Shown: one piece after another, positions 58,251 through 63,033 of the stretch
How the letters are laid out: every line of letters begins with the position of its first letter
Numbering within the stretch: position 1 is the stretch's first letter
Notes under the pieces: generated by a model
Told to the model about the DNA's origin: nothing
The model's database searches: none
The model's input: only the letters and a program-made list of their open reading frames with translations
Position numbers and translations under genes: made by a program
Sequence record: NC_027349.1
Strand: one strand, 5' to 3'
From: Escherichia phage HY01
Length of the DNA stretch: 64,000 nt

Positions 58251-58291
58251 TTTCTAATCTCCGTAATTCTATATCAGTAGTTGATAGTTGT

Positions 58292-58321
58292 ATAGTACCA
58301 CAGTATGCTTTGGTTGTAAAC
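58292..58321 (-). promoter_or_regulatory. T4-type early promoter for motA (GTTTAC-N18-TACTAT)
   Basis: Cassette immediately downstream of a terminator, upstream of motA. Confidence 0.5.
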
Positions 58322-58342
58322 CGTTTTGTGAAAAAATTTTTG

Positions 58343-58377: not shown

Positions 58378-58527
58378 TTACTGCATGACTGTGATAACTG
58401 TCATGATAACACGTTGAATTCCGAACGCAAGAAGACCTCCTGCTACGGCAGGAACAACACCTAAACCCGCCAGTAAAATGCTACCAGATACTAATGCAGC
58501 GCTTGTAATACCTATGAATGGACTCAT
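58378..58527 (-). CDS. Small hydrophobic membrane peptide (49 aa)
   Basis: Not in the track; hand-translated MSPFIGITSAALVSGSILLAGLGVVPAVAGGLLAFGIQRVIMTVITVMQ; ATG overlaps the gene 52 stop (ATGA). Confidence 0.45.
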   Translation of the reverse strand: MSPFIGITSAALVSGSILLAGLGVVPAVAGGLLAFGIQRVIMTVITVMQ

Positions 58528-59856: not shown

Positions 59857-59997
59857 TTACCATACTAGTGAATGTAGTGCCATAATAACATCAGAAATGA
59901 AAAGCACGACTTGAATTAATCCGAACATTACTCCATAATATAGTGCTACCAATAAAGTAGCAAGGGCTAATGAATAGCCCAAGATTTTCTTAATCAT
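59857..59997 (-). CDS. Small hydrophobic membrane peptide (46 aa; 52.1 or ac region)
   Basis: Not in the track; hand-translated MIKKILGYSLALATLLVALYYGVMFGLIQVVLFISDVIMALHSLVW. Confidence 0.45.
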   Translation of the reverse strand: MIKKILGYSLALATLLVALYYGVMFGLIQVVLFISDVIMALHSLVW

Positions 59998-60148
59998 TAG
60001 TAGATAACAACACAAATGTTAAATATGCACACATACCCTGGGCTAAAGCTTGTGAAAACACGCTGCTAGCATCGATACAGATAGTTAAAACACATGCTAC
60101 TATCCAACAAATAAATGAAATAACTCCTAATAATTTTGCAATATTCAT
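59990..60148 (-). CDS. Small hydrophobic membrane peptide (52 aa; candidate ac)
   Basis: Not in the track; hand-translated MNIAKLLGVISFICWIVACVLTICIDASSVFSQALAQGMCAYLTFVLLSTND with GAGGA Shine-Dalgarno. Confidence 0.45.
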   Translation of the reverse strand: MNIAKLLGVISFICWIVACVLTICIDASSVFSQALAQGMCAYLTFVLLSTND

Positions 60149-60155
60149 ATTTTCC

Positions 60156-60236
60156 TCACTGGCGTCCGAAGACGCCTTTAGTTTTAAGATTGTTACGATA
60201 GAACTGCATCACATGTTCGTTATGGAAATTACTCAT
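60156..60236 (-). CDS. stp: Stp peptide (26 aa), activator of the host PrrC anticodon nuclease
   Basis: Not in the track; hand-translated [26 protein letters not shown], identical to the T4 Stp sequence as I recall it; ATG overlaps the ndd stop. Confidence 0.8.
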
Positions 60237-60691
60237 TAATATGCCTGCAAAACAAATTTAAAGTTATCAGCTAACATACGGTTCATTTCTTCAAGTGTTT
60301 GATACTCAGAATGATGATTACGAGTAAACGCTAAAGCTAACTGACCTTTTCCAAATCCTGTCGTCAGAGGTTTCATCTTAGAAGCAGGAAGATAAAATAC
60401 TGTGTATGGAACATTGTTATTTGCAATAGTACGCGCAAGCTGAGACCGACGCTGACGAATATGACTTAGAACTGCACTGAATCCTTGCTTAGAACGCTGA
60501 TTACCTACATAAAACCGCGCAGATACACACGGACTATCAAATGGACCACCAAATTTGCTCACTAAAAAGTAAAATCCAGGGTTAGACAAAATGTCTTTAT
60601 GTGGAGTTCCAAAAACCCATTCACCACCCTTGATTGTACCAATAACAGTTGCGCCTGCATTATTCAAATCAGTAACAGTCATATATTTCAT
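60236..60691 (-). CDS. ndd: Ndd nucleoid disruption protein
   Basis: 151 aa as in T4 Ndd; conserved position upstream of stp. Confidence 0.85.
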
Positions 60692-61082
60692 GTTAATTTC
60701 CTCTAATTATTTTCTACTCCAAGGCCGCATGAATACATACGGCCGATAAATTAATCGTCGCAGTCGACACTTAATTCCCAGAATTCTTCTACAGTATAAG
60801 TTTCAGTATCATTTTCAATACAGAAACGTTCATTACTGTTATTTGCTAAAGTAGCATTAACTGTCATTTTCTCGCTGGTGCTCTTAAGAGGCGAAATACG
60901 AATTAACTGATCACCACTATCTAAGCAGAAAATTTCACCAACTTTTACATCTTTAAAAACTTTTCATAATTCACCTCAAGGAGTATAAAATCCAAATGCA
61001 GTTGTTGACCATCCCATCCAATATGGGAAATTTGCACCAATGTAAAACATAAGAATATAAAACCAACCGCTCAACAAATTCA

Positions 61083-61280
61083 TCATTTTACACCATTCCA
61101 AATTATTTCAACTACGGATTTTAAACCATTTTGATGAATATCCATTCCGACTACCGCCATCAAATAGATTCCAACTACAACTGAACCTAAGGCAAAAATC
61201 AGCATGAAAATGAATAAAGCCGGAAAAATATTATCGAAAAACCATTCAATAAATGTAAAAGCACTGCGTTTACGCTTCAT
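61083..61280 (-). CDS. Small membrane protein (65 aa)
   Basis: Track start is TTG; ATG at 61280 with GAGGAAAA Shine-Dalgarno; one predicted TM helix. Confidence 0.5.
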   Translation of the reverse strand: MKRKRSAFTFIEWFFDNIFPALFIFMLIFALGSVVVGIYLMAVVGMDIHQNGLKSVVEIIWNGVK

Positions 61281-61287
61281 ATTTTCC

Positions 61288-61401
61288 TCACATAAATCCA
61301 AAGTAAGCGTTTAATACATCAATCATTAAAACGATTGGGAATATACTCAAAACTATTAGTATTATAACTACATTCCATATAGCTTTAATAATCTTTTTCA
61401 T
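61288..61401 (-). CDS. Small membrane peptide (37 aa)
   Basis: Upstream part of the track ORF overlaps a promoter; ATG at 61401 with GGAGG Shine-Dalgarno gives MKKIIKAIWNVVIILIVLSIFPIVLMIDVLNAYFGFM. Confidence 0.5.
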   Translation of the reverse strand: MKKIIKAIWNVVIILIVLSIFPIVLMIDVLNAYFGFM

Positions 61402-61429
61402 TTTCTGTTCCTCCGTAGTTGATAGGGTA

Positions 61430-61459
61430 ATAATACCACGGAAGAACAGTCTTGTAAAC
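61430..61459 (-). promoter_or_regulatory. T4-type early promoter (GTTTAC-N18-TATTAT)
   Basis: Cassette family member; followed by GGAGG and the ATG at 61401. Confidence 0.45.
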
Positions 61460-61466
61460 AACTTTT

Positions 61467-61565
61467 TTAAAAATATTCGTAATAAATGTGAATACCAACT
61501 ACTACCGCTGAAACCTGTGCAACCCACCACGCACAAGCAATAAGTACAGAATTCAAAATTTTCAT
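61467..61565 (-). CDS. Hydrophobic micro-protein (32 aa)
   Basis: Not in the track; hand-translated MKILNSVLIACAWWVAQVSAVVVGIHIYYEYF with GAGG Shine-Dalgarno; ATG overlaps the preceding ORF stop. Confidence 0.35.
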   Translation of the reverse strand: MKILNSVLIACAWWVAQVSAVVVGIHIYYEYF

Positions 61566-61648
61566 AATAACCTCATTACAAAAGTAAATGTTAAACAAAT
61601 TAATGGAATACTAATTAACCAAACGAAACACCACCATAGTGAACTCAT
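61562..61648 (-). CDS. Hydrophobic micro-protein (28 aa)
   Basis: Not in the track; hand-translated MSSLWWCFVWLISIPLICLTFTFVMRLL; ATG overlaps the stop of the 87-aa ORF (ATGA). Confidence 0.3.
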   Translation of the reverse strand: MSSLWWCFVWLISIPLICLTFTFVMRLL

Positions 61649-61908
61649 AACTCAATCTCAGCGATTTTCATTTCATTACTATTAATAGCCGCTTTAAGAC
61701 TATCTGAAAGAATTACATCCCAGTGGTCATTCATATGACCATTAATTAAGCGTGTAATTTCTTCGGGAGTTGAAAAATAAGGCGTATCAGACTCCCAATG
61801 CGATAATCCTAAGCGAGTATAAATCATACCTTCATCATCGCTAGAATATTCAACTGACACAAACTCATCAGTTATTTTATGTTTAGCGTAATAAAATTTA
61901 AATTTCAT
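61645..61908 (-). CDS. Hypothetical protein (87 aa)
   Basis: ORF with GGAGG Shine-Dalgarno directly downstream of an early promoter. Confidence 0.55.
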   Translation of the reverse strand: MKFKFYYAKHKITDEFVSVEYSSDDEGMIYTRLGLSHWESDTPYFSTPEEITRLINGHMNDHWDVILSDSLKAAINSNEMKIAEIEL

Positions 61909-61935
61909 TTTCCGCTCCTCCGTAGCTGATAGAGT

Positions 61936-61965
61936 ATAGTACCACGGTCCTTGTGGTATGTAAAC
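61936..61965 (-). promoter_or_regulatory. T4-type early promoter (GTTTAC-N18-TACTAT)
   Basis: Cassette nearly identical to 41602-41631 and 58292-58321. Confidence 0.5.
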
Positions 61966-61981
61966 TGTTTTGTGAAAATTT

Positions 61982-62539
61982 TTAAATGGAAAGATACCAT
62001 CCGTTGTAGTTGCTTTTTCTTACAACCTTACGAAGGTCTTCTCTATCACCGATGAACTTCGGAGTGTACTGGATGACACCTGGATGAATTTCTTTAGTGT
62101 TGAATATAATTATACAGTCAGCGACTTGATGATTCAGAATGGGCCCTAGATTTATTCCAGAACCGTATGGATACTCTCCGCTGCATCCGGTTGTTACCGA
62201 AATCCAACGTGAGTCAGTTTGATGTGTTTTGACTTCTACACGAAGCCCGCAGTATTTTGGATGTGCCAATACATCCCATGCGTATGTATACGGGTCATTA
62301 ACATCCTCTTGGCCTTTGTTAACATATCCGCTTAGCCAATCTGCTACAAAAAACTCTGCGTACACCGCGATACGGCATCTTTCGATAACTTCTGCTTTAT
62401 CCTGATTTGGATTTTGTTTTAAAGAGTATCTTGCTGTATCAGCAATTTTGACCTTCATTTCACTAGTCAAGTCACTGTTCGATAGGGTAAATGTCGGAAT
62501 CTGAAATAGTCTCTGTAAACCCGGATTCGTTTTCTGCAT
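61982..62539 (-). CDS. denB: Endonuclease IV
   Basis: 185 aa as in T4 EndoIV; conserved position next to rIIB. Confidence 0.8.
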   Translation of the reverse strand: MQKTNPGLQRLFQIPTFTLSNSDLTSEMKVKIADTARYSLKQNPNQDKAEVIERCRIAVYAEFFVADWLSGYVNKGQEDVNDPYTYAWDVLAHPKYCGLRVEVKTHQTDSRWISVTTGCSGEYPYGSGINLGPILNHQVADCIIIFNTKEIHPGVIQYTPKFIGDREDLRKVVRKSNYNGWYLSI

Positions 62540-62801
62540 TTAGACTTTCCTTTTTACCGCTGAGATAAGCGTTATATACTTTAAGAGTGCCGTAATAAAT
62601 TCGGTCATTTTCATCTAAAGACTCACGGTCAAGTTCATCGAGTTCCTTTTTATCCATGACTATAATATCATTGCAGTAAAGAAACCCAAGTTTTTCGTGA
62701 CCAAACTCAAATTTATTGCAGTACACAATATTAGCGTGATGATTTCCGTGTAGATTAATCTCTTTTATGTCGGAATCACTGATATTCATATAATAAATCA
62801 T
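62472..62801 (-). CDS. Hypothetical protein (denB.1 position)
   Basis: Track start is TTG and runs through a terminator-like hairpin; ATG at 62801 gives 109 aa; 3' end overlaps the denB start by 68 nt; alternative ATG at 62789. Confidence 0.45.
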   Translation of the reverse strand: MIYYMNISDSDIKEINLHGNHHANIVYCNKFEFGHEKLGFLYCNDIIVMDKKELDELDRESLDENDRIYYGTLKVYNAYLSGKKESLNAENESGFTETISDSDIYPIEQ

Positions 62802-62838
62802 AATTTCTCTTAAAACAAAAGGGCCGAAGCCCCTCATT

Positions 62839-63033
62839 TTATTTGAATTGTGCAATTCTTTTTTCTAAACAATCTGCGTAAGATTTCATTGAGATGAACT
62901 GTGAAAGCAGTAATTCTTGTTCAACTTCATTAATCGTTAGAAACTTTGTGCTTTCTAAAAATTTGCTCAGTGCATTAATTTTGAGCATTAATTGATCGTA
63001 TTCTTCTTTTACTCGTGCTTGATAACCTAACAT
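62839..63033 (-). CDS. Hypothetical small protein
   Basis: 64-aa ORF between rIIB and a GGGCCGAAGCCCC hairpin. Confidence 0.5.
   Translation of the reverse strand: MLGYQARVKEEYDQLMLKINALSKFLESTKFLTINEVEQELLLSQFISMKSYADCLEKRIAQFK

Follow-up and report, generated by a model that had tools for sequence, protein, structure and literature searches.

Conserved micro-ORFs between denB and ndd of Escherichia phage HY01 match the T4 genes ndd.2 to ndd.6

The micro-ORFs between denB and ndd in Escherichia phage HY01 are, judged by sequence, the T4 genes ndd.6, ndd.5, ndd.4, a 65-aa gene, and ndd.2, and as such they are already annotated rather than new. The explanation that probably holds for the whole set is that of T4-type early genes, ndd.6 to ndd.2, that are selected and modular, each peptide presumably being a lone, dispensable modifier of the host envelope. 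The outcome is a set of cleaned gene models (a 37-aa ndd.4 and a 65-aa DUF7248 gene) together with a short, defined target list; no new kind of system emerges.

The window analysed is a 64,000-nucleotide stretch of record NC_027349.1, and its sequence identifies the source phage as T4-like, of the genus Tequatrovirus. Coordinates refer to this window, and all features described below lie on its minus strand.

Identity of the genes

As in T4, ndd.2 to ndd.6 are flanked by denB and ndd, follow the T4 order, and lie on the early (counter-clockwise) strand. The upstream flank is denB (61982–62539), which codes for endonuclease IV (185 aa, 99% identical to T4 DenB). The downstream flank is ndd (60236–60691), which codes for the nucleoid disruption protein (95% identical to T4 Ndd). 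In tblastn comparisons the Ndd.2 to Ndd.6 peptides are 96–100% identical to their T4 counterparts over their full length. The likeness to the T4 genes (T4p270–T4p275 in NC_000866; T4T, HM137666) covers order, strand, position between denB and ndd, and the early promoter.

The T4 record NC_000866 already labels the products of ndd.2 to ndd.6 as predicted membrane proteins. Every gene of the cluster can be assigned to an existing PHROG family, and the 65-aa gene also to Pfam DUF7248. The HY01 peptides match DUF7248 (PF23906) and PHROGs 8851, 5011, 3098, 2401 and 4135 at full length and well above threshold. However, DUF7248, PF26889 and the PHROG families have no assigned function, so membership adds no mechanism. 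PHROG labels such as “outer membrane protein” and “periplasmic protein” repeat inherited predictions.

A sequence-only reading of the same DNA had found the two smallest micro-ORFs by hand translation. The micro-ORFs are not new features but T4 ndd.2, ndd.3/ndd.2a, ndd.4, ndd.5 and ndd.6, and are catalogued in PHROGs and Pfam; of the records examined, some but not all annotate ndd.6. The five minus-strand ORFs that this reading listed, while counting “four”, do lie where it placed them, all with ATG starts, and the chain has one more member, ndd.2, which it missed.

The chain begins with a gene for an 87-aa soluble acidic protein of the RB51ncORF272c / RB69ORF270c type (61645–61908; phrog_2390). 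It is annotated in RB51 and occurs as three divergent alleles within Tequatrovirus (16 genomes). The T4 reference lacks it and, upstream of ndd.6, holds only an 8-codon remnant, which keeps its Shine-Dalgarno sequence and ends in ATGA on ndd.6. The chain had been described as one of hydrophobic peptides, but this protein is soluble and not hydrophobic. Of its five AF2 models, a single one is confident (pLDDT 88.8). The protein had no sequence match in the PDB, and Foldseek found no PDB structure similar to the model at E < 0.1.

The next two genes are the smallest. The product of ndd.6 (61562–61648; phrog_8851) is 28 aa long (MSSLWWCFVWLISIPLICLTFTFVMRLL), has the conserved pattern WC..W...IP.IC, and is 96% identical to T4 Ndd.6. 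That of ndd.5 (61467–61565; phrog_5011) is 32 aa long and 100% identical to T4 Ndd.5.

The gene ndd.4 (61288–61401; phrog_3098) codes for 37 aa with a basic N-terminus, a transmembrane helix, and an invariant Asp at the far end of the helix, and is 97% identical to T4 Ndd.4. A database profile search found its homologues confined to T4-like phages of Enterobacterales. PF26889 is precomputed on 30 of 41 such database homologues; a local Pfam copy matched neither HY01 ndd.4 nor its relatives.

The 65-aa DUF7248 gene (61083–61280; phrog_2401) is ndd.3 of T4T. Its protein has a basic N-terminus, a transmembrane helix, and a C-terminal GLKSVVE.IWNG, and it matches PF23906 with 68.4 bits (cut-off 27) over model positions 4–57 of 58. 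A 1-nt deletion in the T4 reference, NC_000866, breaks this gene into ndd.3 and ndd.2a, whereas HY01 has it intact. In resequenced T4 genomes the 198-nt ORF is intact as well; read from these genomes, ndd.3 plus ndd.2a is one 65-aa DUF7248 gene. Against 1.84 billion representative proteins, the 65-aa protein found three short relatives only. The remaining matches in that set are long, probably repetitive hydrophobic proteins.

The last micro-ORF, ndd.2 (60976–61086; phrog_4135), codes for an uncharged, aromatic- and Gly-rich peptide of 36 aa (G.N.PYW.GW) that is 97% identical to T4 Ndd.2. It is followed by ndd.1 (60751–60967), which is frameshifted in the HY01 record, unlike in T4: one extra T, in a T5 run at 60955–60959, leads to a stop after codon 4. 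An intact 71-aa ndd.1 is present in all 15 compared Tequatrovirus genomes. The residual ORF (60751–60867) matches only positions 30–66 of phrog_2183.

Other small membrane proteins are encoded nearby. The hydrophobic ORF described earlier at 59857–60148 really consists of two overlapping genes: 52.1 (59857–59997), for a 46-aa membrane protein with DUF7396, and ac (59990–60148), for the 52-aa membrane acridine resistance protein (96% identical to T4 Ac; predicted insertion energy dG19 -3.2). Adjoining gene 52 is motA.1 (58378–58527; phrog_3487), whose 49-aa hydrophobic product is 100% identical to T4 MotA.1. Ac, 52.1 and MotA.1 resemble the ndd.x peptides in having 46–52 aa and one hydrophobic helix, and in being early, dispensable, conserved, and located in the same transcription region. 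They differ in showing no sequence similarity to the ndd.x peptides and in belonging to separate PHROG families. Mutations in ac are known by their phenotype, sensitivity or resistance to acridines.

Promoters, leaders and overlaps

A promoter scan found two early-promoter cassettes, each with a TG upstream of the -10 element. The first (61936–61964) reads TTTACA-17-TACTAT. The second (61430–61458), a sigma-70-type promoter within a 65-nt gap, reads TTTACA-17-TATTAT and is followed by a conserved leader with a Shine-Dalgarno sequence (CTATCAACTACGGAGGAACAGAAA; 61402–61429) before ndd.4. This leader is an 88% identical repeat of the leader of the 87-aa gene (repeat family D2) and, apart from single-base differences, is unchanged in 16 genomes. 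Three copies of the promoter-plus-leader cassette lie within 7 kb (57–64 kb), and the promoter cassettes are conserved in 16 Tequatrovirus genomes.

The 87-aa gene and ndd.6, and likewise ndd.6 and ndd.5, meet in ATGA overlaps; the overlap of the ndd.6 start with the upstream stop is found in 16 of 16 genomes and that of the ndd.6 stop with the ndd.5 start in 15 of 16. The 65-aa gene starts 7 nt past the ndd.4 stop, which is spanned by a GAGGA Shine-Dalgarno sequence. The ndd.2 start overlaps the stop of the 65-aa gene, as ATGA in HY01 and as ATGA or TAATG among the genomes. The stop/start overlaps and the internal promoter that the sequence-only reading had noted are in place and conserved.

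From this arrangement, two sigma-70-type cassettes would drive two operons: the 87-aa gene, ndd.6 and ndd.5 from the first, and ndd.4, the 65-aa gene, ndd.2, ndd.1 and ndd from the second. Each ORF would be translated either from its own Shine-Dalgarno sequence or through a stop/start overlap that lets a terminating ribosome re-initiate. In RNA-seq data, ndd.2 to ndd.6 fall into the early class, an assignment that comes from T4 and not from HY01 (PMC9697503, Table S2). Rfam and tRNA scans of 59.8–63.1 kb found no RNA genes; one sub-threshold potC match is noise.

Both promoters match the consensus of promoter-early stem-loop (PeSL) cassettes in T4-type phages (PST/T4), TTTACW-N17-TAYWAT (PMC4122927), and are followed by a Shine-Dalgarno sequence and a start codon. 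The likeness to PeSL cassettes (Arbiol 2010; Comeau 2014, PMC4122927) lies in the promoter, Shine-Dalgarno and start arrangement, in repetition, and in a gene content that varies exactly at the cassettes. At cassette 1, for instance, some phages have the 87-aa gene while others lack it or carry something else in its place (T4, T2), and a PeSL-mediated exchange of ndd.4/.5 at the same locus has been reported (Comeau et al. 2014, Fig. 6A legend, PMC4122927). The HY01 promoters differ in having no convincing upstream stem-loop: a terminator scan found no minus-strand hairpin at 61459–61480 or 61965–61985, where the DNA is AT-rich only. PeSLs account for the movement of genes, not for their role.

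Conservation and coding evidence

One reading of such short frames is that their products do nothing, being chance frames, or spacer or leader ORFs that carry ribosomes toward ndd. Single open frames of 28–37 codons are not rare in AT-rich DNA, and an 8-codon remnant suffices upstream of ndd.6 in T4. In addition, Ndd.2 to Ndd.6 escaped mass spectrometry in a study of the T4 proteome, which put this down to small size or low level (PMC9697503). A ribosome-profiling study of T4 was not found in the literature.

Nevertheless, this reading is extremely improbable in view of the conservation of the peptides. Loss of the frames in related phages was looked for, and the frames are conserved across genera, as the earlier assignment of these ORFs as real coding genes required. 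The ndd.2 to ndd.6 peptides are near-invariant in 16 Tequatrovirus genomes despite the three alleles of the adjacent 87-aa gene. Four of the families recur in other T4-like genera, at loci where Ndd is only 46–64% identical. Across genera, amino-acid sequences and particular motifs persist despite saturation at synonymous sites, a signal confined to the annotated frame.

As a rough measure, with synonymous sites near saturation (pS about 0.7) and codon alignments guided by the frame-0 proteins, micro-ORF pN/pS is 0.32–0.63 in frame, where there are no stops, and about 0.8–2.8 in shifted frames, where there are many. The ratio for ndd itself is similar to those of the micro-ORFs (0.45). For ndd.6, pN/pS is 0.32 in frame against 1.1–2.8 out of frame, and for ndd.4 dN/dS is about 0.25. 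In all 12 members of the ndd.4 family D28 is unchanged, and in the 65-aa protein the C-terminal I/GLK/G residues are invariant. On this comparative evidence, the micro-ORFs are shown to be genuine genes selected on protein sequence. Word-indexed homologue searches returned close relatives only.

Gene content of the denB-ndd slot

Presence and absence were counted in 39 loci. The ndd.4 family is found in 34 of the 39, ndd.6 in 23, the 65-aa gene in 21, and ndd.2 in 17; ndd.5 occurs in 8, all Tequatrovirus-like with Ndd at least 92% identical. In one locus (L031), ndd.4 is the sole ORF between denB and ndd, which also argues against frames without function. The core of the slot is ndd.4. The slot itself has a fixed position, within a region where gene gain and loss are known. 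Since different T4-like phages carry different subsets of ndd.x, the genes behave as separate modules.

Alternatively, the peptides could be subunits of one hetero-oligomeric membrane complex, with a stoichiometry set by translational coupling. The tight stop/start overlaps fit such a complex, and ndd.4 accompanies the 65-aa gene in 20 of 21 loci; ndd.4 is so common, however, that this co-occurrence carries no information. A single complex was rejected on co-occurrence and is most improbable: ndd.4 occurs alone in L031 and L038 and ndd.6 alone in L022 and L023, ndd.5 is limited to Tequatrovirus, and every other gene combination occurs across the 39 loci.

Modularity also bears on counter-defence. 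By analogy with rIIA/rIIB acting against RexAB, each peptide might neutralise a membrane-embedded abortive-infection or defence effector of the host. The accessory region holds many genes of host interaction (rIIB, denB, ndd, stp, ac), phages that differ in host have gained and lost the genes as modules, and the slot is a hotspot of PeSL shuffling. Against this, the T4 anti-defence screens found in the literature are silent on the ndd.x genes, and the one PADLOC match is weak, so that a counter-defence role is unlikely. That match, of ndd.4 to KwaA (Kiwa), has E = 0.012 over the transmembrane segment; because it appears in only 1 of 12 family members, it was set aside as a compositional match of transmembrane sequence, due to chance.

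A broader form of the idea is unlikely as well. Here the denB-ndd slot would hold swappable single-helix “membrane decoys”, each binding and disabling a different host protein of the inner membrane or facing the periplasm. Targets might be abortive-infection effectors embedded in the membrane or sensors of envelope stress, and with a change of host PeSL cassettes would shuffle the genes from one phage to another. Present in nearly all loci and invariant in its Asp at the periplasmic edge, ndd.4 would then act on a conserved enterobacterial membrane protein.

Membrane prediction

Among the 291 ATG ORFs of 25–90 aa in six frames of the window, 4% contain a 19-residue segment with a predicted insertion energy below 0, and 5 of these 12 ORFs are genes of the denB-ndd cluster. 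The hydrophobic segments of the cluster exceed the window background by far. The description of the peptides as resembling single transmembrane segments is borne out for three clear single-pass proteins, ndd.6 (dG19 = -1.0), ndd.4 (-1.5) and the 65-aa protein (-2.9). It is marginal for ndd.5 (dG19 +1.2, Kyte-Doolittle 2.2), which is probably membrane-embedded but fails the stricter hydrophobicity scale. It does not extend to the soluble 87-aa protein, and ndd.2 is unclear, since a dG19 of +4.2 gives no clear transmembrane segment.

The predicted ndd.6 peptide is little beyond one kinked transmembrane helix, and AF2 models the 65-aa protein as a single long kinked helix (pLDDT 81). From hydrophobicity and charge, ndd.4 and the 65-aa protein are predicted to cross the inner membrane once, N-terminus inside and C-terminus outside. 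The residues most conserved in them would then sit at the periplasmic end of the helix or past it.

Such small hydrophobic products recall Type I toxins, and shut-off peptides of this sort could depolarise or permeabilise the inner membrane. In size (28–37 aa) and composition the peptides resemble Hok, TisB or Ibs-type toxins, and Ac, a small protein encoded nearby, has an effect on the uptake of acridines (T4 annotation). The likeness to Type I toxins (Hok/Gef, TisB, Ibs, Ldr) is one of size and hydrophobicity; the ndd.x genes differ in having no antisense-RNA architecture and in conserving polar motifs outside the helix. Pfam, NCBIfam and PADLOC gave no match to Hok/Gef or another toxin family at E <= 0.1. 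Presumably, early depolarisation would harm T4 itself, and the adjoining rII would exist to prevent it. Polar and periplasmic motifs are conserved, which speaks for specific contacts and against a generic pore; toxin-like action is very unlikely.

A periplasmic placement of the conserved residues would also suit superinfection exclusion, which the sequence-only reading had proposed beside host takeover, or other protection facing the periplasm. In this model the outward tails of inner-membrane peptides block DNA entry by later phages or envelope damage, as Imm and Sp do. The early expression in T4, the dispensability of the genes in single infection, and the strongest conservation (the ndd.4 Asp and GLKSVVE.IWNG of the 65-aa protein) on the predicted periplasmic side all agree with it. 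On the other hand, exclusion in T4 is already explained genetically by imm and sp. Pfam, NCBIfam and PHROG annotations show no relation to a characterised exclusion protein, and no experiment ties the denB-ndd region to exclusion, which makes this role distinctly unlikely.

Possible roles

The preferred reading is that of separate envelope modifiers. Each peptide would act alone, in the first minutes of infection, on a host component of the inner membrane or envelope. The likely mode would be helix-helix or periplasmic-tail contact, as in other small membrane proteins.

Examples of such proteins are AcrZ, MgrB and MgtS of E. coli, which have fewer than 70 aa and a single transmembrane helix, and act by binding a larger membrane protein. 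Gp11 of the staphylococcal phage PhiNM1 is described as an early product of the same kind, with fewer than 70 aa and a single helix, that binds a larger membrane protein (PMC11237401). All four are functional analogies to ndd.x only, without homology.

A function for ndd.2 to ndd.6 is assigned neither in database matches nor in the literature found, and NCBIfam matched none of the peptides. In the main texts of the CRISPRi-ART paper, the HIDEN-SEQ preprint and one anti-defence screen, ndd and denB do not appear. Roughly one T4 protein in three carries the annotation “uncharacterised” (PMC9697503). The most difficult to study are membrane peptides of the smallest size, since they escape mass spectrometry and are often passed over in automatic annotation.

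Dispensability is indicated by the sa-delta-9 deletion, from 52.1 to denB, which is viable with about 50% yield (PMC6071114). The same deletion raises a last alternative, namely that one or more ndd.x genes cause the phage-induced stimulation of phosphatidylglycerol synthesis. The deletion abolishes this stimulation, and the region has several predicted membrane proteins among its products (Kutter et al. 2018, PMC6071114). This is nonetheless highly unlikely: sa-delta-9 removes about 14 genes, and stimulation is likewise missing when dCTPase, endonuclease IV and Alc alone are lost by mutation (PMC6071114), which points away from the micro-ORFs.

Gene order and identity

The window comes from a Tequatrovirus (T4-like phage), and 497 phage records match the 1.3 kb around the cluster, with a top identity of 97.4%. 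Gene identities were assigned from the annotated records of T4 and RB51 and by tblastn. The gene order, all on the minus strand, begins with rIIB, denB.1 and denB (61982-62539). Next come an 87-aa gene (61645-61908), ndd.6 (28 aa, 61562-61648), ndd.5 (32 aa, 61467-61565), ndd.4 (37 aa, 61288-61401), a 65-aa gene (61083-61280), ndd.2 (36 aa, 60976-61086), ndd.1 (60751-60967) and ndd (60236-60691), followed by stp, ac, 52.1, gene 52, motA.1 and motA.

The sequence-only reading had counted four coupled micro-ORFs here but listed five; all five exist, with the sequence given and an ATG start. Its members are real, but the chain runs on into ndd.2, whose ATG overlaps the stop of the 65-aa gene (ATGA). 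Likewise, the supposed tiny hydrophobic ORF at 59857-60148 turns out to be two genes, 52.1 and ac. The observation is confirmed, while its interpretation is only partly supported.

The micro-ORFs are the T4 ORFs ndd.2 to ndd.6, an already known gene set annotated long ago, and the T4 record describes them as predicted membrane proteins (NC_000866). Existing PHROG families take in all the cluster genes. The 65-aa protein matches Pfam DUF7248 (68.4 bits; cut-off 27), and PF26889 is assigned to database homologues of ndd.4. The cluster does not amount to a new kind of system.

Annotation of these genes is uneven. ndd.6 is annotated in some, not all, of the records examined. Several GenBank records (database matches H1, H27, H72 and P0002) label homologues of ndd.2 or ndd.4 “naphthalene 1,2-dioxygenase”, which on peptides of 36-38 aa is obviously a propagated mis-annotation.

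Between denB.1 and denB (62540-62855, minus strand), the window carries an additional gene of some 105 aa (phrog_2237, function unknown). It is present in loci L003 and L004 and missing from T4, L005, L006 and L027. Its 3' end overlaps the denB start by about 68 nt, and its region contains a terminator-like hairpin (62835-62818).

Gene models

ndd.3 and ndd.2a of the T4 reference (166548-166628 and 166432-166554) are two fragments of one DUF7248 gene, because the reference lacks one base directly after the ATGAA of the 65-aa gene and this gap is confined to the old Sanger-era records X75802, AF158101 and NC_000866. The base is present in nine resequenced T4 genomes, and the 198-nt ORF is annotated in T4T and MT984581.

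The length of ndd.4 is 37 aa, counted from a conserved start that has GGAGG 8 nt ahead of it; the 42-aa start of T4 is due to a T4-specific C-to-T change.

In the window, ndd.1 has one extra T in the run 60955-60959, giving ATG AAA AGT TTT TAA. None of 15 Tequatrovirus genomes compared has it. Only the last 38 codons are still open; they match positions 30-66 of phrog_2183. The frameshift may be genuine, making ndd.1 a pseudogene, or it may be a sequencing error in the homopolymer.

Evidence for real genes

Open frames of 28-37 codons are unremarkable in AT-rich DNA, so the case for genes rests on relatives. Across 16 Tequatrovirus genomes, at most four positions vary in each of the ndd.2, ndd.4, ndd.5, ndd.6 and 65-aa peptides. 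Unlike these neighbours, the 87-aa gene has three divergent alleles in the same genomes.

More distant relatives were represented by 36 loci fetched around Ndd homologues from IMG/VR (Ndd identity 46-95%), and families were counted over 39 loci. Four families recur in the slot between denB and ndd. The ndd.4 family is found in 34 of the 39 loci, ndd.6 in 23, the 65-aa family in 21 and ndd.2 in 17; ndd.5 occurs in eight, all Tequatrovirus-like.

Selection was estimated as pN/pS (Nei-Gojobori), with synonymous sites near saturation and alignments guided by the frame-0 proteins. The ratios are 0.50 for ndd.4, 0.32 for ndd.6, 0.60 for the 65-aa gene and 0.63 for ndd.2, compared with 0.45 for the bona fide gene ndd. 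In the same alignments read one or two bases out of frame, the ratio is about 0.8-2.8 and stop codons are abundant. Specific residues are also kept: ndd.4 has an invariant M1 and D28, the 65-aa protein an invariant I48, G52, L53, K54 and G63, and ndd.6 shows the recurring pattern WC..W...IP.IC.

The frames are kept in relatives; their loss there would have counted against the sequence-only reading. Because this conservation is frame-specific, it is very unlikely that ndd.2 to ndd.6 are purely regulatory or spurious. They are established as five small protein-coding genes, each under its own selection.

Individual records show sporadic lesions. The 87-aa gene is fused to ndd.6 in a Logan contig (P0052, 115 aa), a 2-nt insertion at about 2120 in L004 alters the ndd.6 C-terminus and destroys its ATGA overlap, and in the record of the T2 escape mutant PV648364 codon 45 of the 65-aa gene is a nonsense codon.

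Promoter matches and possible coupling

A promoter scan gives two minus-strand sigma-70-type matches, TTTACA-17-TACTAT (61964-61936) and TTTACA-17-TATTAT (61458-61430), each with TG upstream of the -10. Such matches are no commoner in the region than in shuffled sequence, so it is position and conservation that speak for these two promoters. Each is part of a promoter-plus-leader cassette, GTTTACA...GTGGTAyTAT...CTATCAACTAC.GAGG, whose three copies (58274-58339, 61396-61477 and 61903-61983) sit ahead of motA, ndd.4 and the 87-aa gene. The cassette is kept in 16 of 16 Tequatrovirus genomes.

Both promoters fit TTTACW-N17-TAYWAT, the consensus of the promoter-early stem-loop (PeSL) cassettes of phages PST and T4 (Comeau, Arbiol and Krisch, PMC4122927), where an ndd.4/.5 exchange at this locus is an example (Figure 6A). 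No stem-loop was found at either cassette.

Directly behind the promoter at 61964-61936 (cassette 1), the content of the slot varies. The slot holds the 87-aa gene in its three alleles, is empty in T4, and contains an unrelated 68-83-aa gene in T2 (L046) and some other genera (seen in L022 and L021). T4 retains the Shine-Dalgarno (SD) sequence of the 87-aa gene and eight codons (MKIAEIEL), the first and last codons of the gene being fused (L001 reverse complement, 1866-1911), and this remnant still ends in an ATGA shared with the start of ndd.6. The loss looks like recombination between AAAATGAAA motifs at both gene ends.

The ATGA overlap of the 87-aa gene with ndd.6 is conserved in 16 of 16 genomes and that of ndd.6 with ndd.5 in 15 of 16; the 65-aa/ndd.2 junction is TAATG in four and ATGA in most. 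Strong SDs of their own precede ndd.4, the 65-aa gene and ndd.1, and ndd.6 has only a weak one. That T4 keeps an SD and an overlapping remnant without the 87-aa gene would fit a need for coupling at ndd.6.

A 31-aa ATG ORF (61905-62000, minus strand) begins at the end of denB, crosses cassette 1 and stops at the start of the 87-aa gene, which it overlaps by ATGA. Some database entries include it and so give the 87-aa protein a length of 115-120 aa. Since the promoter lies inside this ORF, it is probably no gene.

Membrane character

Hydrophobicity was scored in 19-residue windows on the Kyte-Doolittle scale and a Hessa-type insertion scale. Clear transmembrane helices are predicted for the 65-aa protein (-2.9 kcal/mol), ndd.4 (-1.5) and ndd.6 (-1.0). 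ndd.5 is marginal (+1.2 kcal/mol, Kyte-Doolittle 2.2), and ndd.2 (+4.2 kcal/mol), which is uncharged, aromatic and glycine-rich, gives no clear call. The window has 291 ATG ORFs of 25-90 aa, counted in all six frames, and only 12 have an energy below zero; ac, 52.1, ndd.4, ndd.6 and the 65-aa gene make up five of these. By prediction, at least three of the five peptides are single-pass membrane proteins. The view that most of the ORFs encode hydrophobic peptides is supported; the product of the 87-aa gene is an acidic, soluble protein.

ndd.4 and the 65-aa protein carry N-terminal charge (KK..K or KRKR), and from this distribution an N-in/C-out orientation is predicted; for ndd.6 the orientation is ambiguous. 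The most conserved residues of both proteins lie at or beyond the predicted periplasmic helix end. An AF2 model of the 65-aa protein is a single long kinked helix (pLDDT 81).

Shigella phage Sf25 gp120 (P0041, 62 aa) is a natural in-frame chimera, joining the Ndd.4 N-terminus and transmembrane start to the C-terminal half of the DUF7248 protein. This is compatible with a shared membrane orientation.

Expression and possible roles

In T4 dual-omics data, the RNAs of ndd.2, ndd.2a, ndd.3, ndd.4, ndd.5 and ndd.6 are early and their protein class is “NA”; Ndd.4 (P39249, 5 kDa) is cited as a protein missed probably for its size (PMC9697503). Kutter et al. list the ndd.1 to ndd.6 products as unknown, and phage with the sa-delta-9 deletion (52.1 to denB) remain viable at about half the normal yield (PMC6071114). 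No mention of ndd.2-ndd.6 was found in accessible genome-wide T4 screens. On these T4 data, the genes are transcribed early and are dispensable in the laboratory.

We infer that each peptide binds, early in infection, some component of the host's inner membrane or envelope. Lipid or envelope remodelling is one possible purpose, held with low confidence. According to Kutter et al., sa-delta-9 abolishes the phage-induced stimulation of phosphatidylglycerol synthesis, but a mutant lacking just dCTPase, endonuclease IV and Alc also fails to stimulate (PMC6071114), so this phenotype cannot be assigned cleanly to the micro-ORFs. Exclusion and counter-defence are each held with similarly low confidence.

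A single complex of all peptides was considered and rejected, because their distribution over loci is mix-and-match, which argues for independent modules. ndd.4 occurs alone in L031 and L038 and ndd.6 alone in L022 and L023, ndd.5 is limited to one genus, and the gene order differs in L025.
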